From Candidatus Saccharimonadales bacterium (GTDB lineage: Bacteria; Patescibacteriota; Saccharimonadia; Saccharimonadales; UBA4665): a stretch of 64,000 nucleotides of DNA. The position numbers were made by a program, and so were the translations under genes. The notes under the pieces are model-generated. The model saw only the letters and a list, made by a program, of their open reading frames with translations, was not told where the DNA came from and did no database searches. Position 1 is the first letter of the stretch. Each line of letters begins with the position of its first letter. The stretch lies in the NCBI GenBank assembly GCA_035692985.1, contig DASSHG010000009.1:7717-71716 (forward strand), given 5' to 3'. Shown here one piece after another: positions 1-14,440 of this stretch.

Positions 1-405
1 AAAGCACTCAACGAAAAACTGCACCCTAACCTATTCCCCGGCCTCAATCCGGACAATTTACCCTATTTTGTGCCGATTGCTGCCGTGGCCCGCGGCCGCA
101 CCCTCATCCACGACTGGATGTACGAAAACCGTGCCATTTATTACACCGAGATGACCAAGGTCGGGGCTACTGTCGAGCTAGCGGATCCGCACCGCATCTA
201 CATTATCGGACCGACTAAGTTCAAAGCGGCCGACGTTGTCTGCCCACCGGCGCTGCGTCCCGCCAGCTTACTGCTAATCGGCATGCTCGCCGCCAAAGGC
301 ACCAGCATGCTGCGCAACGTCTACACTATCAATCGCGGCTATGAAGACCTGGCCGCTCGCCTCAACAGCCTCGGCGCCAAGATTACCGTATTGCACGAGA
401 TATAA
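1..405 (+). CDS. murA: UDP-N-acetylglucosamine 1-carboxyvinyltransferase, C-terminal part (5' end outside window)
   Basis: The frame is open from the window edge. The C-terminus ...CPPALRPASLLLIGMLAAKGTSMLRNVYTINRGYEDLAARLNSLGAKI is MurA-like. Stop TAA at 403-405. Confidence 0.85.
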   Translation, partial: KALNEKLHPNLFPGLNPDNLPYFVPIAAVARGRTLIHDWMYENRAIYYTEMTKVGATVELADPHRIYIIGPTKFKAADVVCPPALRPASLLLIGMLAAKGTSMLRNVYTINRGYEDLAARLNSLGAKITVLHEI

Positions 406-408
406 AGA

Positions 409-762
409 TTATGCGACCACTGGCTCTGCTGCCAGCTCACTGAAATATTCGCTGATTACTTCTGTCATGTGCTGGCTGGGAATAGCAACGTCTTTGCCAG
501 ACAGGTCTCTCATCATGCTTAAATTTCCTAAGGCTCTGCCCAGAGTTGCTACTCTCATATCAACAAACTGAGGATAATCTTCAGGTTTATGAGAATACGG
601 CCTCACCAGACCTAATGACAGCATGCCTGCGCCAACGTAGTTCCAGAAACGAAGCCCTTCAAGGCTACTAAAGCGAACGGCATCACCGAATGCCCATCTT
701 TCGTCATGCGTATCAAATCTCACTCGCGCTTTGTTACCCTCGTCAAGTGATTCGATATCCAT
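409..762 (-). CDS. hypothetical protein (117 aa), host-type composition
   Basis: ATG at 760-762, which is Met103 of the 409..1068 track ORF. Preceded by TGATATAAT plus 7 nt. The longer track version would cross attL into GC-rich foreign DNA. Confidence 0.5.
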   Translation of the reverse strand: MDIESLDEGNKARVRFDTHDERWAFGDAVRFSSLEGLRFWNYVGAGMLSLGLVRPYSHKPEDYPQFVDMRVATLGRALGNLSMMRDLSGKDVAIPSQHMTEVISEYFSELAAEPVVA

Positions 763-769
763 GACAATA

Positions 770-778
770 ATTATATCA
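770..778 (-). promoter_or_regulatory. extended -10 box (TGATATAAT) 7 nt upstream of ATG 762; leaderless-type promoter
   Basis: The reverse complement of 770-778 is TGATATAAT, the same 9-mer found at the tRNA and GGDEF promoters in this window. Confidence 0.45.
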
Positions 779-1173
779 TGCTGGTACCCCTCACGGGAGC
801 ACTTTCCAAAAACGGAACCGCCAATCAGCTCGCACGCCTGAACGCGCTCCGCAAGAAGCTGCTCCGGGAAGCCGCCAAAGCGCCCAAGCTTCCGACACCT
901 CCCCCACCACGCCGCATTGGCGAAATCTCCGGGGCCATCAACGAAGTCTTGACCAACGCGTGCGAGCCGCTGCATGCCGCCGAAATCCATCACGCAGTCG
1001 AGCGCCTGCTTGGCCGCTCCGTCAACTACCGCTCCGTCAAAGGCTGTCTGTCCGAGGGAGCGGCGCACCGCCCACCGCGATTTGAGCGCATCAGCTACGG
1101 GCGATACCGGCTAGCAGCAAACGCAGGACTGGCCTCGGCGAACCGCCGCCGAGATCGGGGGAGACAAACCTAG
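778..1173 (+). CDS. detached C-terminal segment of the split serine integrase (winged-helix, HARE-HTH-like pattern); expressed alone it would be 131 aa
   Basis: GC-rich third codon positions. ...EPLHAAEIHHAVERLLGRSVNYRSVKGCLSEGAAHRPPRFERISYGRYRL resembles a winged-helix pattern. The frame is in phase with the int ORF across the 9-bp repeat. ATG 778-780 lies in host DNA just outside the repeat. Confidence 0.55.
   Translation: MLVPLTGALSKNGTANQLARLNALRKKLLREAAKAPKLPTPPPPRRIGEISGAINEVLTNACEPLHAAEIHHAVERLLGRSVNYRSVKGCLSEGAAHRPPRFERISYGRYRLAANAGLASANRRRDRGRQT
782..790. repeat. attL core, direct repeat TGGTACCCC
   Basis: Identical 9-mer to 13121-13129. GC-rich DNA starts here. Confidence 0.7.
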
Positions 1174-2402
1174 AACGGAATATCCTGACTATCGTCTTCG
1201 TGTGCCTCAGCTCCGGCGCCGTCGTCTTGTGGAACCGTTTCAGAACCACCGTTGCCATCGCTCTCAAGCACCTCATCAGATTCCTGACCAAACAGAATTC
1301 GCAGCCGTCGCAATACCTCGTCATAGGTGATTACCGTCAAACTGAATAGCCCTTGTCGGAAATGGTTGAACGAGTCCTGCTGACGCTGATCAAGAGAGTC
1401 GAGCATTCCGCAGATGAGCACGCCCTTTGGATGCACGCGATTCAGCCCCGCGAAGCCGAGTCCAAGCGTATGACTGAAATTGTCAATGGCGACTGCTATC
1501 TGATTCCGCACTTGAACAATCCCACCCGAAAGATCGGCATGGATACTGTAGCTCTCATTTGGCAATCCAGAGCCAACATCTCCACGGTAGATCGAGCCGA
1601 CAAGCCCAGCCGACGGAGTCTTGATGTCCACTACAGAAAAGCTCTTGGTGCTTGCATCTGAGGCGAGAAAGTCCGTCGCCACACCACCTTTACCCTGACG
1701 CCCAAGCGGAAGCTTTCCCCCGAGATAAACCTCATCCCCAAGTATAAACACGGATGCTGAAAAGACTGCTTGGAGAATCCACGGATTACTAGAGAAGAAC
1801 TCGTGCCAGAAGGGCTCATCCCCCCGATGGCTTTGGAGGGCTGCTTCAAGCTCGTCTATGACAGCCTCACGATCAAGTTGTATCTTCGCAATCGCAAGAC
1901 GAGAAGCAAGGTCAGGGTCTTTTTCGGTCAGCGCCTTCCAAAACTCTTGCGAATAGCCATGATCCAGCATCTCTTGAATAGCCTGGGATTTGGTACTGTC
2001 GTCAACGATCAGCACCTCCTCCTTCTTTGCGACAACGAAGTTGGCGTCCCCGTATTGAACACCCTGCCCCTGGACGCGATATAGATGGGTCAGCTTCTCG
2101 AACAGCCGAGTCGTCGCCTCGGTGTCAAGCTCAATCGCCACACCACAGTCGGCAGGGACTTTGGTGAAGTTGACCTCATTCACATCCTTCCATGAACCGT
2201 CTTGGCCGATCTTTTGTCGGATGATTTCCCCTCGCACCCCGCCGGAATGAAGCCCAGGTCGAAACACCGTGCGAGTTCGAGCCGTGGTACTCAGCACGAT
2301 GTCATCCGCCGTGGCGTAACCACGCTTAACGTAGTGCGTCTTAATCTCGTCTGCCAAGTTACCTCCTAAGGTGAACGCGCCGGACAGCGGCCCGGCAGCC
2401 AC
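1170..2402 (-). CDS. sduA: Shedu-type defence nuclease SduA (DUF4263, PD-(D/E)xK)
   Basis: FWHEFFSSNPWILQ..., TDFL...SFSVVDIKTP (D...D-x-K), VQVRNQ, KGVLICG and a C-proximal VITYDEVL match the DUF4263 pattern from memory. Start is GTG 2402; an alternative TTG at 2357 follows GGAGGT. Confidence 0.7.
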   Translation of the reverse strand: MAAGPLSGAFTLGGNLADEIKTHYVKRGYATADDIVLSTTARTRTVFRPGLHSGGVRGEIIRQKIGQDGSWKDVNEVNFTKVPADCGVAIELDTEATTRLFEKLTHLYRVQGQGVQYGDANFVVAKKEEVLIVDDSTKSQAIQEMLDHGYSQEFWKALTEKDPDLASRLAIAKIQLDREAVIDELEAALQSHRGDEPFWHEFFSSNPWILQAVFSASVFILGDEVYLGGKLPLGRQGKGGVATDFLASDASTKSFSVVDIKTPSAGLVGSIYRGDVGSGLPNESYSIHADLSGGIVQVRNQIAVAIDNFSHTLGLGFAGLNRVHPKGVLICGMLDSLDQRQQDSFNHFRQGLFSLTVITYDEVLRRLRILFGQESDEVLESDGNGGSETVPQDDGAGAEAHEDDSQDIPF

Positions 2403-2482
2403 ACACGTAGTCTACGCCCAATGAGATAGTCGTGACAAGCGCTACACGGTCGGCCAGGCAGAGACGGCGTCGCTGCACCTAC

Positions 2483-2584
2483 CTAGCCACCAGCGCCTAT
2501 GCCAAAAAACACGGCAACGATCAGAACGAGTCCCGCAACAATGATGAAAACATTAATCGCCGTAGTATCAGCGAGAACGATCAC
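2483..2584 (-). CDS. 33-aa hydrophobic single-TM peptide (MIVLADTTAINVFIIVAGLVLIVAVFFGIGAGG)
   Basis: Below the ORF-track size cutoff. GTG start preceded by GGAAGGAGAA plus 6 nt. Lies 26 nt downstream of the 162-aa gene on the same strand. Confidence 0.4.
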   Translation of the reverse strand: MIVLADTTAINVFIIVAGLVLIVAVFFGIGAGG

Positions 2585-2610
2585 CTAGATTTCTCCTTCC
2601 TCGGGCGACT

Positions 2611-3099
2611 CTAGTCGATGATTGGCGTAAGCCACGCCGAAGCGTCGGAGAAATTGACGGGCTCAGTTCGAGAGTCAGCTCGTAGCTTGTTGAGGCGAAC
2701 ACGACGCTGGTTCTTGCCATCAAGATTGAAACGATCCTCAATGACCTCTCGCGTGGCTTTGAGGCCCTCGGTAATCTGGAAATCCTCATCGAAAAGAACC
2801 ACGACAACTGAGTCGTACTCGTCCTCGCTAATGGGCGATAAGACGGTGGGCGTGGAGTCCGGCGTTTCGCGACGGGACTTGACCTGGATTCGCTCGCCAG
2901 ACGGGGTCTTCACGTCCCATCCCTTCTGACTAAAGGAAGCCCGCTCGCCCTTGAAGTGGTCGCAGACAATCGCCTCAGCGATATCCCCCACAGGGTTATT
3001 ATTGGTGCGGATAACTCCGAGAGCACGAAGCTGGCGCATAATCGCAACCCAGTCGCTTAATAGCTCACATTTATCCTTGCTACTTGCGTCGTAGGCCAC
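2611..3099 (-). CDS. small PD-(D/E)xK-like nuclease-fold protein (162 aa), family not identified
   Basis: GDIAEAIV...KGWDV...RIQVKSRR reads as a D...(E/Q)xK-type motif. GTG start with GGTGGAG upstream. Confidence 0.5.
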   Translation of the reverse strand: MAYDASSKDKCELLSDWVAIMRQLRALGVIRTNNNPVGDIAEAIVCDHFKGERASFSQKGWDVKTPSGERIQVKSRRETPDSTPTVLSPISEDEYDSVVVVLFDEDFQITEGLKATREVIEDRFNLDGKNQRRVRLNKLRADSRTEPVNFSDASAWLTPIID

Positions 3100-3123
3100 G
3101 CCTTATCTGCTCCACCCCGACGG

Positions 3124-3294
3124 CTACGTCTTCGGACGTTCGCCAGCCTCTTCACGAAGCATTTCAATTTCCCGTCGCACTCCATTCAGTAAGTCCCAAG
3201 TGTACTCATCGTCTTCGGTCTTGATCTGAGCAGCAAGCTGACGGACAACCTCCTCAAGATTCCGCAGAGCGTTGAGTATCGTTGTTGAGGTCAT
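3124..3294 (-). CDS. 56-aa helical/charged small protein
   Basis: Translated by hand as MTSTTILNALRNLEEVVRQLAAQIKTEDDEYTWDLLNGVRREIEMLREEAGERPKT. Its ATG abuts the upstream stop (TAGATG). Below the ORF-track cutoff. Confidence 0.4.
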   Translation of the reverse strand: MTSTTILNALRNLEEVVRQLAAQIKTEDDEYTWDLLNGVRREIEMLREEAGERPKT

Positions 3295-3693
3295 CTAGCC
3301 CTGGTTTTCGTCTGCGAGCTGGCGTGCAGTAAGCCCAACTACGAGGGCAAGGAAGGCAGCTGCATCAGCTTGCCTCTCAGCCGCTGCCACGACCGATCCA
3401 GTGGCCTCGCCCTCTGGTACCTGTAAATGCAAGGGAATTGCAGCACGATGCGCTTCCATGCCTTCCCAAAAAGCTCGCTGCGCATCATCACCCATACCGA
3501 CCGATTCCCGAAGGGCTCGTAGCTGATCGGTCGTTTTCTCGCCGCCCGTGAAGCTCTGCTCGATCGCTTCACGCACCGTGATCTCACCGGCCTCGGCTTG
3601 CGCCAAAAGCTCGTCGCTAACTGGCTCAAGCGTCACGAAGTCTCCCCAGCGTCTGAACGCCTCTCTGACCTCCTCTGGGCCGATCTCCGCCAC
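3295..3693 (-). CDS. hypothetical protein (132 aa)
   Basis: GC-rich ORF with a GTG start. It is the second gene of a same-strand operon. No recognisable motif. Confidence 0.55.
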   Translation of the reverse strand: MAEIGPEEVREAFRRWGDFVTLEPVSDELLAQAEAGEITVREAIEQSFTGGEKTTDQLRALRESVGMGDDAQRAFWEGMEAHRAAIPLHLQVPEGEATGSVVAAAERQADAAAFLALVVGLTARQLADENQG

Positions 3694-3717
3694 CGAGCGA
3701 AGCCTACCGCCTGTCCG

Positions 3718-4050
3718 CTAGCTCCTGACGATCTGCGAAACGCGCTGATGGCTCATGCCCATCACCTGGGCGATGGCCTTCATCGGCAGACCGTCCTTGT
3801 AGGCGGCGCGAACGGCTTCGTCCCGCTCCTCGCGGAGCCGCTCGGCCGCCTTCTCCAGCTCGCCTTGACGACGGGCATAGTCCTTGGCAAAGGCCTTTAG
3901 GCGGGTTTTGGCCTGCGGTGCATGGCGTTTGGGACGGGCGATACAGAGGATGCTCTGCGGTATTCCTGCTAGTCGGTTAGCATGAAGTCCTACGCAGGGA
4001 GAGGCGGCCGCCTCATCCGACCTCGATTCACAAGGAGGCGTCGTTGCCAA
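3718..4050 (-). CDS. helix-turn-helix DNA-binding protein (sigma-70 region-4-like C-terminus); start uncertain
   Basis: The C-terminus is DGLPMKAIAQVMGMSHQRVSQIVRS. The only in-frame start candidates are TTG 4050, a TTG near 4110 and ATG 4221. The longest version overlaps the well-supported gene at 4044. Confidence 0.5.
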   Translation of the reverse strand: MATTPPCESRSDEAAASPCVGLHANRLAGIPQSILCIARPKRHAPQAKTRLKAFAKDYARRQGELEKAAERLREERDEAVRAAYKDGLPMKAIAQVMGMSHQRVSQIVRS

Positions 4051-4889
4051 GCCGAGTCCGACTTTCCACCAGCCGCGTGGCAGTTCTGATCGGAGCCGTC
4101 CTCTTGCTCCTGCCCACGTCAACGCTTGCAGCCAGCGCCGGGGGCAAGCACCGTCGTCACGCTCATCCCCAGGTGTCCTGGACGCTGCCGCATGTAGTGA
4201 GCGAAGGCCAAACGATTCCATTTACCTGGAAGGCCACCGGCCACCTTGGCCCCAACTACCGCCTCGTCGTCCAGCGGCCGGTGGGTACCGCCCATACCTG
4301 GAAAACCATGCTGAGACTGAAAACCCGTAAGGGCTCAGCCGAGCTGCCAGGACAAAAGCTTGGCACCTACCGCTTCCGACTGGCAGCGCTCCGAGGACAC
4401 CTGGTGCTGGCCCAGAAAGTCCTCGGCATCGATGCGTTCGGTCAAGTGCCGTTCTCGGTGCTGCTGCGCAATGGCTACCTGACTACTGGACACCTGGAAA
4501 ACGGCGTCTATGCCACGCCATCAAGCAGCTTTCCCTATGTCGGGGGAGCCTACGTTGGAGACCATGGACGACCGAACACGGTCTTTTCGGTGAACCACAA
4601 CCGGTGCTCGGCAGTCCACGTTGGCTTCGTGCTCGGTGAAACGCCCGGCGAAGGCTATAGCTACCCCGCATCAATCTACGGTGTCGTTACGCTGGTACAG
4701 CAGTCCCGTGATCCGGTTGCATCGGAAGTGCCCTTCAATGGCATCGGCTCGGTAGACGCGGAACTTGTGCCTGGTCAGACCTGGTCCCTGCTGGTTGAAG
4801 AAAACAACCGGGAAGGCAAGCTAGGGTCGCCGACCGTCTACTTCAATGGCTACGCCATCTGCGACAGCACGGAATCGTTCTTCTCGTAA
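4044..4889 (+). CDS. secreted hypothetical protein (281 aa)
   Basis: TTG start 5 nt after AAGGAGG. Signal-peptide-like N-terminus RVAVLIGAVLLLLPTSTLAASA. Confidence 0.6.
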   Translation: MPSRVRLSTSRVAVLIGAVLLLLPTSTLAASAGGKHRRHAHPQVSWTLPHVVSEGQTIPFTWKATGHLGPNYRLVVQRPVGTAHTWKTMLRLKTRKGSAELPGQKLGTYRFRLAALRGHLVLAQKVLGIDAFGQVPFSVLLRNGYLTTGHLENGVYATPSSSFPYVGGAYVGDHGRPNTVFSVNHNRCSAVHVGFVLGETPGEGYSYPASIYGVVTLVQQSRDPVASEVPFNGIGSVDAELVPGQTWSLLVEENNREGKLGSPTVYFNGYAICDSTESFFS

Positions 4890-4955
4890 AGCGCCAGGGT
4901 GGAGCGGGCGTCTCAACTTCGTTGATACTCCGATCTGTGCATACTTCACCCTCTA

Positions 4956-5738
4956 ATGGCGGACGGAGCGAATAGAGCCGCAGAACTGCTTCAGCAAGCC
5001 TATGCGAGCGGAGAGCTTTCTGAGGAGTCCTCACAGGCTCTGATCGCGGCTGGAGACGTTGGTCGGGAGGTCGGCTACGCGCTCGGTGGGGGCGGCCACG
5101 GTGACGAATTGTTGCTTGTCACTATCCTTGCCGACGATTCAGGGTCTATCTCAGTCATTCCGGGCGGTGCGGAGGCGGTTCGCCAGGGTCACAACCACTG
5201 CCTTGACGCGCTCGACACCGAACAGGGAGCCGAAGCGCTCGTCCACACGCGCTATCTGAATGCCGGCAGCTTGTCCCCCTATCGAGGTCTAGCTACTGCC
5301 ACGCGCCTTAGCGCCGAGAACTTTAATCCCGTAGCCGGTCATACGCCGCTCTACAGGCAATCCGTTCTCACGCTAGGTGCCGTCATGGCGAAGGTTCAAG
5401 AGCAGAAGGCCGAGGGGCGGCTTGTCAGGGCTTTCACGCTCATCATTACCGACGGCGGCGACAATGCATCGGGCCAGGTAAGCGCCCAGCATGTGAACTT
5501 CCTCGTCCGCGACATGCTGGACTTCTCAGACGATTACATCGTCGCCGGTATGGGCATCGGTCAACGCGCCACATTCCAGCCCATCTTTCGCGCGATGGGA
5601 ATCCCGGAGGGTTGGATTCTCACCGCCGATGCCTTGCCAGAGGAGATAAGCAAGCTGTTCCGCAAAATCGCGCAATCCCTCCAGCTTGCGGCAAGCGGCG
5701 AGGCTGGCTGGCTTCAACTGGAGGCCGGACCGCCCTGA
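4956..5738 (+). CDS. von Willebrand factor A (vWA) domain protein with intact MIDAS
   Basis: LLLVTILADDSGSIS (DxSxS), GHTPLY (Thr) and LIITDGGDN (Asp) are arranged as in vWA domains. Confidence 0.7.
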   Translation: MADGANRAAELLQQAYASGELSEESSQALIAAGDVGREVGYALGGGGHGDELLLVTILADDSGSISVIPGGAEAVRQGHNHCLDALDTEQGAEALVHTRYLNAGSLSPYRGLATATRLSAENFNPVAGHTPLYRQSVLTLGAVMAKVQEQKAEGRLVRAFTLIITDGGDNASGQVSAQHVNFLVRDMLDFSDDYIVAGMGIGQRATFQPIFRAMGIPEGWILTADALPEEISKLFRKIAQSLQLAASGEAGWLQLEAGPP

Positions 5739-6094
5739 GATGGTGGCGATTGACGCCCATCGCCGGTTTCCTCCTCCTGTGGCCAGCAGCGAGCCAGCTC
5801 CTGGTCGGCATCCGGACCGGCATAAATGCCAAGACCGGGCTTGTGGGCTAATGGCCGCTCTTCGTCCAAGTCGAAAGCGTGGCCAGTGTAGACATTTTTC
5901 GAACCAAAGAAGTTTTCGACACTGTCAATTCGCGATAGGTGGGTCGCATCTGCTCGATCTTCCTGATTTTCTAAAAAGACAAAGCCCTTCGCCGCATATT
6001 CCGGCCAATTGTCTTCGGTAATAATGTCACGCCGTACCCGCACGAAGTTGGGGTCGCTATCAGCGGTTGGCTGCTGGGCTGAGGATTCACTCAT
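5714..6094 (-). CDS. hypothetical protein (126 aa)
   Basis: ORF with an ATG start. It converges on, and overlaps, the vWA gene by 25 nt. It diverges from the J-domain gene across an AT-rich ~65-nt spacer. Confidence 0.45.
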   Translation of the reverse strand: MSESSAQQPTADSDPNFVRVRRDIITEDNWPEYAAKGFVFLENQEDRADATHLSRIDSVENFFGSKNVYTGHAFDLDEERPLAHKPGLGIYAGPDADQELARCWPQEEETGDGRQSPPSQGGPASS

Positions 6095-6159
6095 ATATTA
6101 CATCCTGTTTACATACCCAGCGTACGCCCCCCTCCCGTGTAAGTCCAGAGGGTGATGCA

Positions 6160-6924
6160 ATGCCCGACGATGCATCACTGGACTTCTTCAAGCTGCTTGG
6201 GGTCGGGCGCGATGCCTCCGACCAAGAAATCAAGAAAGCGCACAAACGGCTGGTCCGGAAGTACCACTCAGATACTGGCGGCGCGACAGCGAACGACGAG
6301 AAGTTCATGAAAATACAGGCGGCATATGAGACGCTTAAAGATCCCTACAAGCGAGCAGAACACGAAGCCGAGCTAGGAAAACAGGAGCAAGCGAAGATGC
6401 GTCGCCGCGAGCAAGCACGGCGGCGCCGAGCCCGCGCCCCAACGGAAGACGCGACGAATATCTTCGGGGAACACATCCGTGATTCCCACTCCAATACTGG
6501 ACCGGGCGTGTCGTCTCGGCCACCACACGCCGCGAGCCCACCCCCAAGAGCATCACCAGCCCCTCCGCCGCCAGGCTCTACCAACCGGCCGAAGCCGTCA
6601 CCGACCCCAGCGCCATCTTACCCGCCTCCGATGAGATGGTACGAGTATTTCCTCGCGGATTCCGTATCCGGAAAACTCCTCGCGCTGTTCGCATCAGCGG
6701 GACTGACGACTGCGGTCATTCTCATCCCCCATGCGGTGGCTACCGGCATAGAAGCGGGGGCATCTCAAGATCACAATTTTCTCGCGGCGCTTGTACTTCT
6801 CGCGGCCGGGCTCGCGGGCGGTATCGGGGGAATCTTTGGAATACTCCTGACGGCATACTGTTTCTTCTCCCTTATCGCTGTGACCCTACGGGAGATAGGC
6901 AGCGCCTTGCGTCAGACGCCGTAA
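6160..6924 (+). CDS. J-domain membrane protein with HSD in place of HPD
   Basis: LDFFKLLGVGRDASDQEIKKAHKRLVRKYHSDTGG...KIQAAYETLKDPYKRAEHE is a J domain. A Pro-rich linker and 2-3 C-terminal TM helices follow. ATG 6160 is Met32 of the track ORF. Confidence 0.7.
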   Translation: MPDDASLDFFKLLGVGRDASDQEIKKAHKRLVRKYHSDTGGATANDEKFMKIQAAYETLKDPYKRAEHEAELGKQEQAKMRRREQARRRRARAPTEDATNIFGEHIRDSHSNTGPGVSSRPPHAASPPPRASPAPPPPGSTNRPKPSPTPAPSYPPPMRWYEYFLADSVSGKLLALFASAGLTTAVILIPHAVATGIEAGASQDHNFLAALVLLAAGLAGGIGGIFGILLTAYCFFSLIAVTLREIGSALRQTP

Positions 6925-7952
6925 GTGTCGGCCTCCTCACCGGATAGTCGATAGAAGTCCGCCACCCGATACCAGTCCTCATCAATGAGGCCGATGAATT
7001 CATCGGCTGCTCGTTGCCAACGGTGGTAATCGCAGTCGCACTCTCCGCCGTCCGGCTCTAGGCAGTTCGCCCACCGGAGCCATACCCCCATCAGCTCTTG
7101 GCGTCGCTCACCAGCCTCGACCAAGAGATTTCCAAAGCCGTCCAACTCCTCATGCGGCGCATCAGCCAGCAACGTCCGGAGCCAGGAGCTGTCGGTCTCG
7201 CCTAGCGGCGCAAGAAGCTGGAGCTGGTAAATAGCGTCGGCCGCGGCGATCTCGCAGTCCATCTCCGCCAGCAGCCACAGGCCGCCTTGCTCATCCACGA
7301 AACGCTGCAAGGCCAGCTCAAACCTAGCCCACTGCCAGGTGATGTTGGCCAGGCGGTCAGAGACGGCGTGCCGGTCCTCCTCCTCGGCCGCCAGGTATCC
7401 CCTGAGCACCACCAGGTCATTTCTCATGCCAGCTACCGGTGTCCAGATGCGCCGGTAGCTACGGTGTTGCTCCAGCCAGTCGATGCCCAGGCCGGACTGC
7501 TCCGGCGTGCGCTCGGCTTCCATTCGGTGCCGGTGTCGCAAGCGGTAAGCGCTGTCAGCCGCACACAACTCGTCGGCAACCGCTTCGAGCAGCAATGGCT
7601 CGCGCTCCTTGCGGAAATGTTCCTGCGAGACGTGCAGGGCTCCGGCGGCTTGCCGTCGCCGCTCCTTGAGCAAGGAGCCACGAGTACCCGTAGCCAGGCC
7701 CAGCAAGATAGAGGCTGGCCCATTGCTACCGCCATCCAACCGCTGCGCGGCCTCCACGATCAGGGTATGGGCAGCCACCGCGAGATCGGTGTCTTGCTCG
7801 CTAGCTGACTTAGCTTTCACGAGCGCCAAGCCCAGGACCGTCGAGCAGGCCCGTAGGCCCTCGGTCGTGACGCCGCCGCGCAGCAAGTCTCCCAGCTCAG
7901 CGGCCAGCTCATCAGGTGACGGGATAGCTGCCTCGTTCATCAAGTTCCCCAC
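6912..7952 (-). CDS. hypothetical protein (346 aa; start GTG 7952 or ATG 7940)
   Basis: Long GC-rich ORF with a Cys/His-containing C-terminal part (CLEPDGGECDCDYH). No family recognised. Confidence 0.6.
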   Translation of the reverse strand: MGNLMNEAAIPSPDELAAELGDLLRGGVTTEGLRACSTVLGLALVKAKSASEQDTDLAVAAHTLIVEAAQRLDGGSNGPASILLGLATGTRGSLLKERRRQAAGALHVSQEHFRKEREPLLLEAVADELCAADSAYRLRHRHRMEAERTPEQSGLGIDWLEQHRSYRRIWTPVAGMRNDLVVLRGYLAAEEEDRHAVSDRLANITWQWARFELALQRFVDEQGGLWLLAEMDCEIAAADAIYQLQLLAPLGETDSSWLRTLLADAPHEELDGFGNLLVEAGERRQELMGVWLRWANCLEPDGGECDCDYHRWQRAADEFIGLIDEDWYRVADFYRLSGEEADTYGV

Positions 7953-8316
7953 TAAAGCACCGGGAAGCCCCCACTTGCTTCCTCGACGATGCGGTCGTGA
8001 ACAAACCGACCGTCTTTCTCATCGTCGCCATCGTAACCCTGAGCTTCTTGGTCTCGGCTGGACCGGCGCTGGTGGCTCTCGCTAACGCTGCCGTTCCACT
8101 CGTCCTGGTCGTCGGCGTGGTGGTCGTGGCGCTACGGCTCGTCTTTTTCCACACCCGACGCTGGTGATGGCAGGTGGAGATTTCAAGTTGTGCATTCCAC
8201 GCCTTGACCGGCCAACTGAAGCAGGCGGACAATGGAGGGTTACGTCTGAACCTGAGTTCCTCGCCCTCATCCCCGAAAACGTGACCTTCAAGAACTAAAT
8301 GAAGGGAGGTATCACC

Positions 8317-8469
8317 ATGCCAAGAAAACGAAAACCGACCAGGCAGGTCCGGGTCCGCGACATACCGCTGTCTGAGATTGACGAGACGAAGGTCGCCCTG
8401 GCGTTCTGGCTGATGGCCAAGCGCCTCATTGACGAACAGGACGCCGAAAGCGAATCGGTAGCGCCGTGA
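8317..8469 (+). CDS. 50-aa basic/acidic small protein, first gene of the transfer operon
   Basis: GAAGGGAGG lies 7 nt before the ATG. Its stop overlaps the next start (GTGA). Sequence MPRKRKPTRQVRVRDIPLSEIDETKVALAFWLMAKRLIDEQDAESESVAP. Confidence 0.45.
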   Translation: MPRKRKPTRQVRVRDIPLSEIDETKVALAFWLMAKRLIDEQDAESESVAP

Positions 8470-10547
8470 CCCACAAGAAGCTGGACTGGTTTCAGCTTCA
8501 GTTTCCGCAGGGAGTTGAGACAGACCACCTGCTGGCTGGCCTGTCGTCGTTCTCCGGCGTCCCGTTCCGCGCCCGCATCGTCCTCGACCTGACCGCCACG
8601 GCGGAAGGCATCAAGCACTTGCTGGGCGTAACGCCCAAAGACACCGGCACCGTCACCGCCGCGCTGCGCGCCGCCATGCCGAGTCTGCGCCTGGCTCACG
8701 TCGAAGCGCCACCGCGCCCACCACGCCGCTGGCTGTGGCAGACAGCGCCCCGCGTCGCCAGCCTGCGTAGTGAGGAGCCAATCGCCATTGCCGCCGCTCT
8801 CTTGTCCAGCCTGTTCCCGCTGGACGGTGATGAGGCTGTCCGTCTCACCTGGACGCTGCGCTCCTGGCCACGGCCGCCGTTGCCAGTCGGCCGCTATGAC
8901 GCCCAGGACGGACGAGAAAGGGTAGTGCGCGCCAAGCTGAGCCTGCCGGGCCTTGCCGCCTACGGCGAGCTGTCAACTGTCGCCAAAACGCCAGCCCGCC
9001 GTGCCGAGCTGACTCAGCGCACCGCCTCGGCCCTATGGAGCCTCAGCACTCCCTTTGGTCGCTTGGCCGTTGACCCATACTGGCTCGGACAAGTAGCCCG
9101 CCTGCTTGGCCTGCGCGGCCGTTACCTGAGCGCTCCAGAGCTGGCCGCCGTCATCGGCTGGCCGGTCGGCAGTCCCGACCTACCAGGCCTGGAGCTGGGC
9201 GCGGCCAAGCGGCTGGTGCCCGCCGCCAGCCTGCCCGAAGACGGCCGGGTTCTCGGTGTAAGCGACTTCGCCGGAATCACCCGACCGGTTGCTATCTCCG
9301 CCACCGCCTCGACGCGCGGGCTGTACGTCCTCGGCCCCACCGGCACCGGTAAGACCAATCTACTCAAGAACCTCATCCGCGATGACCTCGAGCAGGGCCG
9401 GGGCCTGGTGGTCGTGGAGACCAACGGCGATCTCATCCAAGAGCTGTGCGATGTCATCCCGCCGGAGCGTGTGAATGACGTAGTGCTGCTCGACCCGACC
9501 GACCGCGACAGCGCCGTCGGCTTCAACCCCCTCGCCAGCGGTTCCGAGCCCTCCCTGATCGCCGACCAGCTCTCTGAGCTGTTCCAGCGGCTCTGGGAGG
9601 CGTTCTGGGGACCGCGCACCGCCCAGCTGACCCACATGGGCTTGCTAACCCTGGCGCGCCGTCCTGGTTCCACGCTACTCGACCTGCCGCGCCTCTACCT
9701 TGACTCCGCTTTCCGCGAGAAGGTGTTGGCCGACCTGGACGATCCTCTCGGCCTCGGCCCGGACTGGCAGTGGTTCGAGAACCTGCCGACCCGCGAACAG
9801 GCCAACGTCGTCGCCCCCCTGCTCAACAAGGTGCGCGCCTTCACCGCGCGTCCGGCCATCCGCGCCATCGTCGGCCAGCCGAAGCCGCGCCTCACCATGC
9901 ACCAGATCATCGAGCAGAAAAAGGTGCTGCTCGTCCACCTGCCAAAGGGCCTGATCGGCTCCGAGACCGCACAACTGCTCGGCTGTCTCGTCCTCACAGC
10001 CGTTTGGCAGGCCGCCGCCGAACGGGCCGCCTTGCCGCCGAGCCAGCGCCACCCGGTCTCGCTCTACGTCGATGAGGTACAGGACTTCGCCTCGGCCCCG
10101 GTGCCCTGGGACGAGATGTTCGCCCAGGGGCGCAAGTACGGGCTGGCTCTGACCGCCGCCCATCAGAACCTTGAGCAACTGCCGAAGGAGCTGAGGGAGG
10201 TTGTGCTGGCCAATGCCCGTTCAAAGGCGGTGTTCGCCCTCAGCGCCACGGACGCGAGGACTATGGAGCGGCTGTTTGAGCCCGCCCTGACAGCCGCCGA
10301 CCTGCAAGCCCTTGACGCTTACTCGGTCGCCGCCCTGGTGGCACTGGACAATGGCAGCGCCGCCCGGCCGGTGACGCTGACCACGCCGCCGCCCGTGAAG
10401 TCACTGGGCAGCAGGGCGCAGGTCCGCGCGACCTCGCACCAACATTACGCCCGCCCGCGAGCTGAGATCGAGGCCGAACTGCGCCGAGGCGTAACTCCAA
10501 GGCGACCCAAAACGCCAGTCGGCCGCAAGCCCCGGAGGGCGTCATGA
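8466..10547 (+). CDS. TraD/VirD4-family (type IV secretion DNA-transfer) P-loop ATPase without N-terminal TM
   Basis: Walker A GPTGTGKT and Walker B LYVDEVQDF. The C-terminal FAQGRKYGLALTAAHQNLEQL resembles the TraD/TraG coupling-protein module. Confidence 0.7.
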   Translation: MTHKKLDWFQLQFPQGVETDHLLAGLSSFSGVPFRARIVLDLTATAEGIKHLLGVTPKDTGTVTAALRAAMPSLRLAHVEAPPRPPRRWLWQTAPRVASLRSEEPIAIAAALLSSLFPLDGDEAVRLTWTLRSWPRPPLPVGRYDAQDGRERVVRAKLSLPGLAAYGELSTVAKTPARRAELTQRTASALWSLSTPFGRLAVDPYWLGQVARLLGLRGRYLSAPELAAVIGWPVGSPDLPGLELGAAKRLVPAASLPEDGRVLGVSDFAGITRPVAISATASTRGLYVLGPTGTGKTNLLKNLIRDDLEQGRGLVVVETNGDLIQELCDVIPPERVNDVVLLDPTDRDSAVGFNPLASGSEPSLIADQLSELFQRLWEAFWGPRTAQLTHMGLLTLARRPGSTLLDLPRLYLDSAFREKVLADLDDPLGLGPDWQWFENLPTREQANVVAPLLNKVRAFTARPAIRAIVGQPKPRLTMHQIIEQKKVLLVHLPKGLIGSETAQLLGCLVLTAVWQAAAERAALPPSQRHPVSLYVDEVQDFASAPVPWDEMFAQGRKYGLALTAAHQNLEQLPKELREVVLANARSKAVFALSATDARTMERLFEPALTAADLQALDAYSVAALVALDNGSAARPVTLTTPPPVKSLGSRAQVRATSHQHYARPRAEIEAELRRGVTPRRPKTPVGRKPRRAS

Positions 10548-10663
10548 GCGCGCCGCTCGCCCGTCCGGTCGCGTCGAGCAGACCGCCGCTCATTCCAGCT
10601 CTCAAAGCCCCAACCCGGCCCATTTCGCTAACGACTGATTACGGAAAACGAGGTTGGCAATGA
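10544..10663 (+). CDS. possible 39-aa Pro/Arg-rich micro-ORF
   Basis: ATGA overlaps at both ends (10544-10547 and 10660-10663), with CGGAGGG upstream. Its composition could equally be GC-rich noise. Confidence 0.3.
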   Translation: MSAPLARPVASSRPPLIPALKAPTRPISLTTDYGKRGWQ

Positions 10664-11478
10664 GCGCCCGCTACGTCACGGCAGCGGCACTGCGGAAGCT
10701 GGCCGCCCAGCTCACCGAGCGGGACCACGAACTCGTCCAGACGGTCTGCGTCCTGCGCTTCGTGTCCGGCTCCCAGCTTCAACGGATGCACTTCACGGAC
10801 GCCGAAGGCGACGACGCCAACGCCCGCACCGCTCGCCGGGCTCTACTGCGCCTCGTCAGCCTGGGCGTGCTGGAGCGTCTGCCACGCCAGGTCGGAGGCG
10901 TCCGCGCCGGGAGTGCTGGATTCGTCTACCGGCTTGGCCGTGCCGGTCAGCGCCTGGCCGTCGAGCGGGGCTGGTCGTCGAACAGCCGCCGCCAGTGGCA
11001 GTCGCACGTACCGGGCAGGTTGTTCCTCGACCACGCCCTCCAGGTTGCTGAACTGCACACGCTGATCGTGGAAGCCGACCGCGCCGGGCTGGTCGAGTTG
11101 CTGTGGCTGGAGGCAGAGCCCGCCTGCTGGCGGTCCTACGGCCAGCGCGCCACTCTCAAGCCGGACAGCCATGTCCGGCTGGGCATCGGTGACTACGAGG
11201 ACAGCTACATGATTGAGGTGGACATGGGAACCGAGAGCAGCCGGACGCTGGAGCGCAAGCTGGGCGACTACCTGACCTACGAAGCCAGCGGGCGCGAGCA
11301 GGCCGAGCACGGCGTCTTCCCCAAGACGCTCTGGCTGGTGCCGGACGCAGAGCGGGCGAGGGTCATCGAGAGCTGCATCGAGCGGCTGCCGCGCTCAGCG
11401 CATCGGCTGTTCGCCGTCAACCAGTTCAAGGACGTGATCGCGGCCGTCGCGACCCCTGAACCAGCGGACAAAGGCTAG
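10660..11478 (+). CDS. replication-relaxation (Replic_Relax-like) family protein
   Basis: RRALLRLVSLGVLERLPRQVGGVRAGSAGFVYRLGRAGQRL (wHTH) and KPDSHVRL...YMIEVDMGTES...LERKLGDY match my recollection of the family. ATG 10660 follows ACGAGG. Confidence 0.65.
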   Translation: MSARYVTAAALRKLAAQLTERDHELVQTVCVLRFVSGSQLQRMHFTDAEGDDANARTARRALLRLVSLGVLERLPRQVGGVRAGSAGFVYRLGRAGQRLAVERGWSSNSRRQWQSHVPGRLFLDHALQVAELHTLIVEADRAGLVELLWLEAEPACWRSYGQRATLKPDSHVRLGIGDYEDSYMIEVDMGTESSRTLERKLGDYLTYEASGREQAEHGVFPKTLWLVPDAERARVIESCIERLPRSAHRLFAVNQFKDVIAAVATPEPADKG

Positions 11479-11526
11479 GAACGACTTGTTCCTGCAAGTA
11501 AAATAGAAGGAATAGAGAGGAGGGAT

Positions 11527-13329: not shown

Positions 13330-13553
13330 TAAGTGACTTTGCTTTCCTGGGCTTCGGCCCACTTATGAGCACAGTGGTCATCTTGGTTTTGCTGATTATT
13401 TTCGCGTTTGAAATTTGGATGTTCGTCAGCGCTATCACCAATAAAGTCATTGCCGGTACCGCCAAAATCTGGTGGATCGTGGGGATGGTGCTGATACACC
13501 CAATCGTGGCCATTATCTATTACTTTACCGACTATAAAAAAGAAGGCAGATAA
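13326..13553 (+). CDS. small membrane protein, PLD-nuclease N-terminal (PLDc_N)-like
   Basis: Two TM helices. ...FEIWMFVSAI...AKIWWIVGMVLIHPIVAIIYYF resembles the PLDc_N pattern. TGCTACAAT lies 6 nt before the ATG. Confidence 0.5.
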   Translation: MISDFAFLGFGPLMSTVVILVLLIIFAFEIWMFVSAITNKVIAGTAKIWWIVGMVLIHPIVAIIYYFTDYKKEGR

Positions 13554-13819
13554 TGGCCGCTCAACGATCCGACCCAGATAAAATTACCGAGATATCCACC
13601 GAGGCTCTGCACAGGCTGATCCAACAGCGGGACAGCGCCTTTAAGCGCCTGCCCCTCCTCTTTACTTTGCTGGGCGCATTCGGGCTAATGGCAACGTTTT
13701 ACGGATTCCAGCACATCATTAATAAGATTCCCGTACTGGCTGACAACCCCCTAATCACTCTCTGCGTAGGTTTGTTAACCCTTCTATTGACGGGTACTTT
13801 ATACAAGAAACTTGGCTGA
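13553..13819 (+). CDS. hypothetical membrane protein (88 aa)
   Basis: TAATG overlap with the upstream gene. Two predicted TM helices. Confidence 0.45.
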   Translation: MAAQRSDPDKITEISTEALHRLIQQRDSAFKRLPLLFTLLGAFGLMATFYGFQHIINKIPVLADNPLITLCVGLLTLLLTGTLYKKLG

Positions 13820-13900
13820 TGGTAAACCTGTTGTTCTGCGTTATTGCTTCTTAAAGGTGTCTGCTATATGCTGAGGATAGATTAAGCGTAAGGATTATCC

Positions 13901-14440
13901 ATGGCAAAAATACAAAGAAAAGTTATTGATAAGGTTTTCATCATGCTCGGCGTCTGTGCTACGGCAGTGTTGCTGGTAGTCGGCGGATTGGCCTGGTATG
14001 GTTATTCGTTCACTCATAAACAAGTAAAAGACGAGCTGTCGTCGCAAAAGATTTACTTTCCACTGAAAGGCAGCGCGGCGTTTAGCCCGGCTGAGTTCCC
14101 CGATCTTCAGAAATACGCCGGACAGCAAGTGGATACCGGCATCAAAGCCAAGGCTTACGCCAACGATTTCATTGGCCGGCACATAAAAAAGATTGCCGAT
14201 GGACAAACCTACTCCCAGGTCAGCACGGCGGCCCAGGCCGACCCAACCAACGCCACTTTGCAACAAGAAAAAAGCACCCTGTTCCAGGGTGAGACCCTGC
14301 GCGGTCTGCTACTGAACGCCTACGCGTTCGATACACTGGGCATGATTTCGTACTACGTGGCAATCACCGCTTTTATTGGCGCGATTATTTTTGCCCTGCT
14401 GGTGTTGGCAGGTTTGGGACACCTCAAACGCCTGGGGTAA
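13901..14440 (+). CDS. membrane protein (179 aa) preceding the ABC exporter
   Basis: N- and C-terminal TM helices flank a soluble domain. AAGGA lies upstream of the ATG. Confidence 0.55.
   Translation: MAKIQRKVIDKVFIMLGVCATAVLLVVGGLAWYGYSFTHKQVKDELSSQKIYFPLKGSAAFSPAEFPDLQKYAGQQVDTGIKAKAYANDFIGRHIKKIADGQTYSQVSTAAQADPTNATLQQEKSTLFQGETLRGLLLNAYAFDTLGMISYYVAITAFIGAIIFALLVLAGLGHLKRLG

Follow-up and report, generated by a model that had tools for sequence, protein, structure and literature searches.

A small defence islet is very probably carried by Candidatus Saccharimonadales as cargo of an integrative element of actinobacterial type. Two independent single-gene defences, a BisI-type restriction enzyme and Shedu, would make up the islet, and the four other ORFs packed around the enzyme gene would be lineage-specific passengers. 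The stretch of DNA analysed here (the window) comprises 64 kb of a 277-kb contig.

Organisation of the locus and its mobile element

The relevant features of the window are as follows.
1170-2402, minus strand: Shedu (SduA) defence nuclease, separated by 80 nt from the 33-aa ORF upstream of it
2483-2584, minus strand: 33-aa ORF, GTG start
2611-3099, minus strand: 162-aa ORF of the BisI-family (DUF6998) enzyme, GTG start
3124-3294, minus strand: 56-aa ORF, ATG start abutting the TAG stop of the 132-aa gene
3295-3693, minus strand: 132-aa ORF, GTG start
3718-4050, minus strand: helix-turn-helix (HTH) ORF, TTG start
8466-10547, plus strand: type IV coupling protein (Pfam)
10654-11478, plus strand: Replic_Relax protein (Pfam)
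from 11527, plus strand: large serine recombinase (Pfam), its ORF running into the tRNA genes
13121-13285, minus strand: tRNA-Arg and tRNA-Gly (tRNA search)

All five ORFs between 2483 and 4050 lie on the minus strand with intergenic gaps of 24, 0, 24 and 26 nt, as an earlier reading of this DNA (the initial annotation) had described, and the motifs that it quoted from their products (MSHQRVSQIVRS, GDIAEAIV, GWDV and IQVKSRR) were all recovered. Given this tight packing, which includes a TAGATG junction, the five ORFs are probably co-transcribed. A scan for promoters and terminators returned counts matching the shuffle expectation, and no convincing internal one was found.

The neighbouring gene at 1170-2402 had been named as Shedu, and domain searches agree. 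Its product matched Pfam SduA_N (7.6e-11) and SduA_C (7.6e-17), and the PADLOC model SduA (PDLC00399) aligned over nearly its full length at 4.5e-49.

The element backbone (8466-13285) has a GC content of 58-68%, compared with about 50% elsewhere in the window, and the best plasmid matches of the coupling protein were to Streptomyces and Embleya. No attachment-site repeats of the element were found, as would be expected of a recombinase of the serine type. A search of positions 1-14000 against Rfam revealed no RNA family apart from the two tRNAs. The analysis confirmed an integrative, high-GC element of actinobacterial type in a Saccharimonadales genome, with the five ORFs and Shedu in its cargo region. 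Together with the family of the enzyme, described below, the backbone and Shedu uphold the original view of a defence-related locus within mobile-element cargo.

A second assembly of the locus (Logan, L001) was 100% identical in DNA sequence to the window; substitution patterns in the small ORFs are therefore uninformative with respect to selection. A chimeric assembly was considered and rejected, since the left junction is present in two assemblies, which may share the same reads. Public gene models differ from ours. The NCBI record versions give 142 aa for the enzyme (162 here) and 113 aa for the 132-aa protein, and both models are too short, as the N-termini are conserved among homologs. 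The initial annotation had also expected the 56-aa and 33-aa ORFs to be missed by routine annotation, which holds in part: NCBI is not a listed source for either product, but the gene calls of the Logan assembly list both (the HTH ORF is absent from them).

The 162-aa protein is assigned to the BisI family

On the basis of its sequence and predicted structure, the 162-aa protein is clearly placed in the BisI family (Pfam DUF6998) of modification-dependent type IIM restriction endonucleases. It matched DUF6998 at 8.6e-11 (42.4 bits against a gathering score cut-off of 27) and the PADLOC model mREase_II (PDLC03212) at 4.5e-25. A single-sequence search of the PDB returned Eco15I (1.3e-18) and NhoI (1.6e-18), to whose solved structures the protein is 30-36% identical. 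With a 38-sequence profile of its relatives, the matches were NhoI at 8.3e-30 and Eco15I at 3.7e-29, covering residues 6-151. Furthermore, when an AlphaFold2 model of the protein (pLDDT 89.7, pTM 0.86) was compared with known structures using Foldseek, ranks 1 to 12 were all occupied by NhoI or Eco15I (best E 7e-13, TM 0.65-0.69).

Next in the Foldseek ranking came PvuII (E about 1e-3, TM about 0.5), which the study of the NhoI and Eco15I structures identified as the closest canonical enzyme (PMC11347163). PvuII, a canonical type IIP enzyme, shares the dimeric PD-(D/E)XK architecture but has no significant sequence similarity to the 162-aa protein. It also cuts unmodified CAGCTG and needs both M.PvuII and a C-protein controller, whereas neither a methyltransferase nor a C-box arrangement is seen at the present locus.

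The initial annotation had pointed to a nuclease-like D...(E/Q)xK arrangement in this protein and had picked the true catalytic residues of a PD-(D/E)xK nuclease. Its opinion that no named system could be assigned is superseded, the nuclease belonging to the characterised BisI/Eco15I/NhoI family. The catalytic residues E42, W61-D62 and Q72-V73-K74 are intact and align with NhoI E50, W69-D70 and Q80-V-K82. Among the 38 aligned relatives, E42, D62 and K74 never vary, and conservation of Q72 is at least 90%; in Eco15I every residue of this set (the helix Glu, xD and QxK) is essential.

The protein resembles the family (BisI, NhoI, the N-terminal domain of Eco15I, AspTB23I and others) in several further respects. 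It is a single small domain of 162 aa with a PD-(D/E)XK core of the E...D...QxK form, and BisI-family enzymes are 150-190 aa in length, several of them being carried by mobile elements (PMC4926085), as this one is. Also held in common are an N-terminal helix (dimer-forming in NhoI), a minor-groove Asn, an external-pocket Arg and Ser, the same predicted fold and the lack of a cognate methyltransferase nearby. Indeed, a domain search detected no methyltransferase domain in the products neighbouring the enzyme, and no C5 or N6 methyltransferase motif was present in window ORFs of at least 200 aa. Studied members of the BisI family show activity when purified on their own (PMC4926085, PMC11347163). 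The members tested include actinobacterial enzymes of low identity to BisI. The enzyme stands alone, a single-gene defence of a known family.

By homology with NhoI and Eco15I, the enzyme would be expected to form a homodimer via its N-terminal helix and to clamp onto duplex DNA. Cleavage would presumably take place within a short GCNGC-like site when several (two to four) cytosines bear 5-methyl or 5-hydroxymethyl groups, through a one-metal PD-(D/E)XK site formed by E42, D62 and Q72-x-K74. Such an enzyme would need no companion methyltransferase, and its likely target would be incoming phage or plasmid DNA with modified cytosines.

The internal methyl pocket is altered in a subclade

The enzyme departs from the BisI family in its host and in one of its methyl pockets. 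The present host is a member of the Saccharimonadales (candidate phyla radiation), whereas relatives of the enzyme are found nearly all in Actinomycetota; its own subclade is mainly from Solirubrobacterales and other Thermoleophilia.

The external methyl pocket and the minor-groove contacts are retained, with NhoI N42, S65, R84 and S98 corresponding to N34, S57, R76 and S88 in the enzyme. Of these, N34 and S88 do not vary in the 38-sequence alignment, and R76 and S88, which belong to the external pocket, are conserved throughout. The internal pocket, in contrast, has been rebuilt or lost. The (H/R)(V/I/T/M) motif that forms part of it (H139-V140 in NhoI) is absent, G127-K128 preceding the conserved N130 in a loop that is one residue shorter, and the proximal-subunit arginine of the same pocket (NhoI R101, Eco15I R98) is replaced by S91. 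Subclade members at 74-80% identity carry DGK, DEK or DKK at the motif position and an ISE, ISD or ISG motif at position 91. More distant relatives possess HV, YV or HQ at the former; actinobacterial ones among them retain HV or YV together with the arginine, which is kept (IRD) in relatives at 50-62% identity.

Since the subclade lacks both internal-pocket elements of NhoI and Eco15I, the specificity of the enzyme may differ, and for this reason its modification dependence and GCNGC target are less certain than its family membership. Both elements of the internal pocket were lost by a paired change (R to S at 91; HV to GK together with a one-residue deletion) while the core and external pocket were kept. 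This allows the tentative suggestion, drawn from sequence comparison, that the subclade enzyme could have acquired a new modification or sequence requirement, for example methyl groups on the outer cytosines alone or a different base modification.

The same missing motif and missing equivalent of NhoI Arg101 might instead indicate that the subclade enzyme is not modification-dependent, so that it cuts or nicks unmodified DNA or some other modified target, or is catalytically idle. There is precedent for such behaviour within the family: Bth171I and Bce1273I cleave DNA that carries no modification, and for 11 of the 34 BisI homologs tested no activity was seen with the substrates used (PMC4926085). 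We nevertheless judge this unlikely for the enzyme described here. The catalytic residues and external-pocket R76 and S88 are conserved or invariant across the 38 relatives, which suggests purifying selection on an active enzyme, and an enzyme cutting unmodified DNA would need a methyltransferase, none of which adjoins it in the window.

Relatives of the enzyme stand alone

Relatives of the enzyme were examined at 60 loci (19 metagenome loci, 3 long contigs and 38 genome loci), with flanks of at most 4-8 kb per locus and much less on short contigs. Within these flanks, homologs of the HTH, 132-aa, 56-aa and 33-aa products were present at none of the 60 loci, and a profile of the 132-aa family found no match in the 38 genome loci. 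Shedu was also found at none of the 60. The neighbours of the relatives vary by locus, comprising C5 methylase/HNH/NERD/HicAB genes, an integrase, a tRNA or a gene for a ribbon-helix-helix protein. The altered pocket is shared by relatives at 75-80% protein identity, and these too are solitary, with neighbours of other kinds. When the window was compared with the loci of these close relatives by blastn, similarity was limited to 2611-3101, that is, to the borders of the enzyme ORF.

The initial annotation had proposed a module consisting of nuclease, regulator and small partner, and had looked to co-occurrence of the 132-aa, 56-aa and 162-aa products in other genomes. The trio was not found to co-occur elsewhere, an outcome that the initial annotation had itself named as refuting the module. 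No other product of the array accompanies a relative of the enzyme at any of the 60 loci, and no nuclease or homolog of the 56-aa product was seen in the four other contexts of the 132-aa family.

It is thus very improbable that the five genes form a lineage-specific functional module in which the HTH protein represses the operon and the nuclease is held in check or switched on by the 132-aa, 56-aa and/or 33-aa products, for instance as an inhibitor of self-nicking or in the manner of a toxin-antitoxin pair. The arrangement of the array, with its shared strand, short gaps, stop/start junction and lack of a convincing internal promoter or terminator, would suit such a module. Expression of some characterised BisI-family members is toxic, and these enzymes nick or cut DNA that bears no modification (PMC8281217, PMC4926085); for some homologs the toxicity arises through the nicking (PMC8281217). 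A locally evolved regulator or inhibitor is therefore conceivable, all the more as the altered pocket of the subclade might loosen specificity. Set against this are the 60 loci without partners, the DNA similarity that stops at the ends of the enzyme ORF, the solitary close relatives with the same altered pocket and the occurrence of the 132-aa family without nucleases. Additionally, none of the four products matched a toxin-antitoxin or defence family in PADLOC, Pfam or NCBIfam. That the non-conserved small products act as locally evolved regulators of the altered-pocket enzyme is the less likely reading.

Because the four small neighbours accompany the enzyme at none of the 60 other loci, we regard the locus as an ordinary defence islet and not as a new system. 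The 162-aa enzyme is the sole conserved, assignable gene among the five. Shedu is an independent neighbour, its adjacency being typical of defence-island clustering and not the mark of a joint system.

The HTH and 132-aa products

Searches of PADLOC, Pfam, NCBIfam and PHROGs yielded no significant match to the 132-aa, 56-aa or 33-aa product, and generic HTH matches alone for the putative regulator. The PADLOC and Foldseek comparisons that the initial annotation had recommended were informative for the enzyme, identified as mREase_II and NhoI-like, but returned no PADLOC match for the three other small products and no fold match for the 132-aa protein.

The HTH product is small and basic, with a C-terminal HTH resembling sigma-70 region 4 (Pfam Sigma70_r4, 2e-05, 24.4 bits with the cut-off at 24.1). 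It also matched phrog_686, a 76-aa HTH DNA-binding protein, at 5.4e-07; no match was found in plasmid and phage records. Its reading frame is open upstream to an ATG at 4221, a stretch that overlaps a divergent 281-aa gene starting at 4044. No canonical start codon lies between TTG 4050 and ATG 3783, and codon-position GC is coding-like from 3718 to about 3945 only. These features render the 5' end, or even the integrity, of the gene uncertain: it may start at TTG 4050 or at a non-canonical codon near 3942-3963, or may be 5'-truncated.

The 132-aa protein is acidic (pI 4.4; family range 4.2-4.9), all-helical and a member of a rare uncharacterised family. A word-index search matched only the protein itself, and exhaustive HMMER searching recovered 12 full-length distant homologs at 34-44% identity. 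Its structural model (pLDDT 74) had no fold match in the PDB or among viral structures (BFVD), with nothing below E 0.8. Three of the four other family contexts adjoin resolvase/recombinase or integrase genes. In two of the loci (L026 and L027) the homolog overlaps the end of a gene for a conserved HTH/coiled-coil protein, and in L025 a C-terminal fragment of that protein lies upstream of the homolog. The 132-aa protein is not a partner of the nuclease.

These contexts could suggest that the HTH and 132-aa genes, and perhaps the 56-aa ORF as well, belonged to the element earlier as an accessory module, the 132-aa protein serving in establishment or against host defences under the control of a small DNA-binding regulator, and that the enzyme and Shedu were inserted downstream later as separate cassettes. 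The acidity of the family, its repeated association with recombination genes and an HTH/coiled-coil gene, and the behaviour of the enzyme as a single-gene cassette are all compatible with this history. We consider it possible, if somewhat doubtful. The family has no functional annotation or structural match, and its upstream HTH/coiled-coil partner bears no detectable similarity to the HTH protein of the window. Moreover, one homolog (P0123) resides among ordinary chromosomal-looking genes, and acidity by itself argues only weakly for a DNA mimic.

The 56-aa and 33-aa ORFs

Neither of these two ORFs had a homolog other than itself among about 5.8 billion protein clusters. The only database match of the 56-aa ORF, whose putative product is charged and was described as helical in the initial annotation, was itself in the Logan assembly of the same DNA, and the 33-aa product forms a cluster with a single member. 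In Pfam, PADLOC, NCBIfam and PHROGs, the 56-aa ORF had no family match below E 0.005 and the 33-aa ORF no family matches. No homolog of the 56-aa product was present at any locus examined for relatives of the enzyme or for the 132-aa family. The case for these small ORFs consists of placement, a Shine-Dalgarno sequence and composition, and not of conservation.

The 33-aa product is hydrophobic (GRAVY 2.2). It may represent a small membrane peptide, or else the ORF may have arisen by chance in the spacer that separates the enzyme from Shedu. RNA folding of this spacer was not significant (z = -1.2). A type I toxin was considered for the 33-aa peptide and dropped, there being no antisense RNA or family evidence.

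It is plausible that neither small ORF is a gene, both being open frames in spacer DNA that cassette insertion left behind, and that the HTH ORF is a 5'-truncated remnant, although we do not favour this explanation. Such an origin would account for the lack of homologs, for the fact that NCBI is no source for either product and for the coding-like part of the HTH ORF having no canonical start. An open frame of 56 codons at 57% GC is moreover not rare, with an estimated chance of about 0.13 per frame, and in no relative do the flanks resemble those of the enzyme. Conversely, the 56-aa ORF occupies precisely the space available to it, beginning at the stop of the preceding gene and ending 24 nt short of the enzyme gene, and the GTG of the 33-aa ORF is preceded at 8 nt by a strong Shine-Dalgarno sequence, GGAAGGAG. 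The codon-position GC pattern of both is like that of neighbouring real genes, and both were called by an independent gene caller.

In the reading that we prefer, the four ORFs would be passengers. One encodes a small HTH protein of generic type and another belongs to a rare family of acidic helical proteins typical of mobile elements, while two have no homologs.

Discussion

The array has a superficial counterpart in C-protein restriction-modification operons and type II toxin-antitoxin modules, in which a small HTH gene likewise heads a co-directional array containing a nuclease, with small ORFs in between. Unlike the controllers of the former, the HTH protein of the window is sigma-70 region-4-like and not XRE- or C-protein-like, and two ORFs separate its gene from that of the enzyme. 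As the HTH belongs to a different class and conservation of it beside relatives of the enzyme is lacking, a C-protein-type controller was dropped. In the case of type II toxin-antitoxin modules, no product matches a toxin or antitoxin family. Shedu (SduA, DUF4263) is akin to the enzyme in being a single-gene nuclease defence, but its sequence is unrelated to all five ORFs, and the 60 loci with relatives of the enzyme lack it.

Through this analysis, a gene annotated publicly as hypothetical and with too short a start becomes an identified defence enzyme, and an apparent new system is removed from the list of candidates. The ultra-small bacterium described here belongs to a group, the Saccharimonadales, that is known to live on Actinomycetota hosts. 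The presence of a BisI-type enzyme and Shedu on an element of actinobacterial type suggests that defence genes have probably moved from the host phylum into its epibiont. The altered-pocket subclade offers a cheap and well-defined target for enzymology and, if its specificity does differ from that of BisI, would provide a new reagent for reading cytosine modification.

The 162-aa product is a BisI-family enzyme by homology

The initial annotation described five closely spaced ORFs on one strand beside a Shedu gene. Coordinates and SduA matches bear this out, with the ORFs separated by 24, 0, 24 and 26 nt.

Features of the operon and the adjoining Shedu gene
3718-4050, minus strand: HTH gene, TTG start
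3295-3693, minus strand: 132-aa gene, GTG start
3124-3294, minus strand: 56-aa ORF, ATG start immediately 3' of the TAG stop of the 132-aa gene
2611-3099, minus strand: 162-aa gene (the enzyme), GTG start
2483-2584, minus strand: 33-aa ORF, GTG start, with GGAAGGAG 8 nt upstream
1170-2402, minus strand: Shedu, with SduA_N and SduA_C (PADLOC SduA, 4.5e-49), 80 nt past the 33-aa ORF

The operon containing the nuclease-like 162-aa product had been considered unassignable to any named system. This product can be assigned, since profile, structure and residue matches all lead to the BisI family. The protein matched Pfam DUF6998 above threshold (8.6e-11) and PADLOC's type II methyl-directed restriction enzyme model (4.5e-25). 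Only two solved structures were matched by its sequence, Eco15I (8q5m, 1.3e-18) and NhoI (8q5n, 1.6e-18), and with a profile of 38 relatives these matches strengthened to 8.3e-30 for NhoI and 3.7e-29 for Eco15I, spanning residues 6-151. When the AlphaFold2 model (pLDDT 89.7, pTM 0.86) was searched against the PDB, NhoI and Eco15I chains occupied ranks 1 to 12 (best E 7e-13, TM 0.65-0.69), followed by PvuII and DpnI, a structural relationship also given in the NhoI/Eco15I structure paper (PMC11347163).

Residues were mapped from NhoI following that paper (PMC11347163), in which the PDB chain index equals the published numbering plus 2. All of the mapped catalytic, minor-groove and external-pocket residues are conserved in the enzyme, and the majority do not vary among the 38 relatives.

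Residues of NhoI and their counterparts in the enzyme
Glu50, E42: catalytic
Trp69-Asp70, W61-D62: catalytic
Gln80-Val-Lys82, Q72-V73-K74: catalytic
Asn42, N34: minor-groove contact
Ser65, S57: minor-groove contact
Arg84, R76: external methyl pocket
Ser98, S88: external methyl pocket

[quoted passage not shown] They cleave within GCNGC sites in which two to four cytosines bear a 5-methyl or 5-hydroxymethyl group, and several of the enzymes are located on mobile elements (PMC4926085). Judged by homology, membership of the 162-aa protein in this BisI/DUF6998 group of type IIM restriction enzymes is secure. Its homologs also indicate that GTG at 3099 is the true start, because they share a conserved N-terminal SYDASxKDKxELLSDW and Eco15I aligns from residue 7 onwards. 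At 142 aa instead of 162, the NCBI record is too short, with conserved residues preceding the annotated start.

The internal methyl pocket is altered in the enzyme's subclade

NhoI and Eco15I read each inner methyl group (G5mCNGC) through both subunits: one contributes a His-Val pair (family motif (H/R)(V/I/T/M)) and the other an arginine, Arg101 in NhoI and Arg98 in Eco15I (PMC11347163). In the profile alignment, the enzyme has G127-K128 at the HV columns directly before the conserved N130, in a loop shortened by one residue. This site reads DGK, DEK or DKK in every subclade member (74-80% identity) and HV, YV or HQ in more distant actinobacterial relatives. The column of the pocket arginine holds S91 in the enzyme, with ISE, ISD or ISG across the subclade as against IRD in others. 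Thus, relative to NhoI and Eco15I, both halves of the internal pocket have changed together in the subclade, whereas the catalytic site and external pocket are retained. That the enzyme cuts methylated GCNGC is consequently a weaker proposition than its family membership, and one we favour only slightly; the rival reading is that modification dependence has been changed or lost in this subclade.

At one locus, L028 (4944-8519), a 79%-identity relative lies approximately 700 bp downstream of genes for a C5 DNA methylase (PF00145), Methyltransf_35 and HATPase_c_3, with HNH_repeat, NERD and HicAB genes on its other side. A C5 methylase beside a presumed methyl-dependent enzyme implies either non-overlapping specificities or a different target for the subclade.

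The enzyme gene travels without its neighbours

Loci containing enzyme relatives were collected from metagenomes (19), long contigs (3, at 78-79% identity) and genomes (38). Sensitive tblastn with all window products recovered the enzyme relative in 60 of 60 loci and, within flanks of at most 4-8 kb (far shorter on short contigs), homologs of the HTH, 132-aa, 56-aa, 33-aa and Shedu products in none; an HMM of the 132-aa family likewise found no match among the 38 genome loci. At the nucleotide level, the window resembles the closest loci over 2611-3101 only, an interval that coincides with the enzyme ORF give or take a few bases. Neighbours vary from locus to locus, and include the C5 methylase, HNH, NERD and HicAB genes, a tyrosine integrase island, a ribbon-helix-helix gene, and a tRNA-His gene or degenerate tRNA fragment. 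Because similarity stops at the ORF borders and neighbours differ, sequence comparison identifies the enzyme gene as a mobile single-gene cassette at island edges.

In actinobacterial relatives, the cassette was observed 90-250 bp from a tRNA-His gene or an approximately 60-nt degenerate tRNA fragment (L003 1467-1541, L006 2917-2991, L028 7752-7813; also L002, L029, L031-L033 and L036). The fragment scores 35.9 bits against Rfam tRNA, and copies of it recur both inside single loci and from one locus to another. Such an arrangement is consistent with cargo carried at the margin of islands that have integrated into tRNA genes.

The 132-aa protein has a separate distribution. A word-index search returned the query alone; exhaustive HMMER against 1.84 billion representatives found 12 full-length relatives (96-142 aa, 34-44% identity). 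The 132-aa start is correct and the 113-aa NCBI version too short, since I4, A12, D18 and F19 are conserved upstream of the latter's start. The family is acidic (pI 4.2-4.9), and the protein is predicted to be all-helical (pLDDT 74), its model matching no structure in either the PDB or BFVD. Neither a DUF6998 gene nor a 56-aa homolog was present in any of the four family contexts examined; a resolvase or integrase adjoins the homolog in three. In L026 (4252-5393) and L027 (572-1443), the homolog's ORF overlaps the 3' part of a gene for a conserved, uncharacterised HTH/coiled-coil protein, complete at 250 and 167 aa respectively; in L025 (1-841), an 80-aa C-terminal fragment of the same protein lies upstream. 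The HTH/coiled-coil protein bears no similarity to the window HTH. The 132-aa homolog and this protein, beside a resolvase or integrase, may form an unrecognised two-gene mobile-element module.

The proposal of an uncharacterised five-gene defence or toxin-antitoxin-like unit is therefore not supported, its small members being non-conserved: the partners are absent from all 60 enzyme loci and the 132-aa contexts lack DUF6998. Absence of co-occurrence outside this element is the outcome that the initial annotation had named as refuting the unit. A rival is a module that evolved locally to regulate the enzyme or to confer immunity to it. The tight operon and the published toxicity of some BisI homologs (PMC8281217) make this plausible, but it is contradicted by close relatives with the same altered pocket, which stand alone. 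We consider the four other ORFs probably to be co-transcribed passengers, of which the HTH and 132-aa genes may constitute an older accessory module of the element.

For the 56-aa and 33-aa ORFs, the rival reading is that they are non-coding. Database searches returned no relatives of either, their sole other copy is a Logan assembly locus (L001) whose DNA is identical to the window, and the sources listed for their products do not include NCBI. Both are present in the Logan gene calls for this same DNA.

The 5' end of the HTH gene is also doubtful. Downstream of the TTG at 4050, no ATG, GTG or TTG occurs before position 3783, and the coding-like GC pattern by codon position is limited to 3718 to approximately 3945 (0.70/0.46/0.78, against 0.63/0.63/0.51 for 3946-4050). 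The best profile match is a 76-aa phage HTH family. Furthermore, a divergent 281-aa gene on the plus strand, which has a perfect AAGGAGG Shine-Dalgarno and a secreted-looking product, starts with TTG at 4044 and so shares 7 nt with the proposed HTH start; this overlap leaves no intergenic promoter space and deepens the doubt. The gene either encodes approximately 75 aa from an unusual start or is 5'-truncated.

An integrative element of actinobacterial type

The window comes from a contig of 276,746 bp in a metagenome-assembled Candidatus Saccharimonadales genome. GC content is 55-68% at window positions ~400-13,300 and approximately 50% elsewhere. The high-GC stretch carries genes for a large serine recombinase, its ORF extending into tRNA-Arg and tRNA-Gly, together with a Replic_Relax protein and a type IV coupling protein; the stretch is an integrative element, probably mobilisable. 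The enzyme and Shedu genes lie at its far end, adjoining murA. These features substantiate the earlier view of mobile-element cargo beside a defence gene. Within 409-1173, a 219-aa minus-strand ORF, present in the Logan gene calls and without family matches, overlaps a 131-aa plus-strand ORF with a weak HARE-HTH match (E 2.6e-4, below cut-off).

Among plasmids, the coupling protein finds its best matches in Streptomyces and Embleya (36-38% identity), and enzyme relatives come nearly all from Solirubrobacterales, Thermoleophilia or other Actinomycetes. Saccharibacteria usually live on Actinomycetota. Since the best matches of element genes are actinobacterial, acquisition of the element from Actinomycetota into a Saccharibacteria genome is suggested.

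GCNGC is strongly over-represented in the chromosomal part (13301-64000), where base composition predicts 225 occurrences and 574 are observed; for the element part, 116 are predicted and 160 observed. This abundance provides many potential BisI-type host sites, and if the enzyme is BisI-like these have to remain unmethylated. No methyltransferase gene was seen within the 64-kb window.

Proposed function

The enzyme is characterised by its homology, fold, intact active site, single-gene mobility and defence-island and mobile-element context. It would dimerise via helix alpha-0, with a beta-hairpin closing over duplex DNA, and modified cytosines in a short GCNGC-like site would trigger cleavage inside it. 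Phage or plasmid DNA containing m5C or 5hmC would thereby be restricted without a methyltransferase being required; the host would have to leave the target sites unmethylated, and Shedu would presumably work independently. Of modest interest are the altered-pocket subclade and the presence, in a candidate-phyla-radiation genome, of an element of actinobacterial type rich in defence genes.
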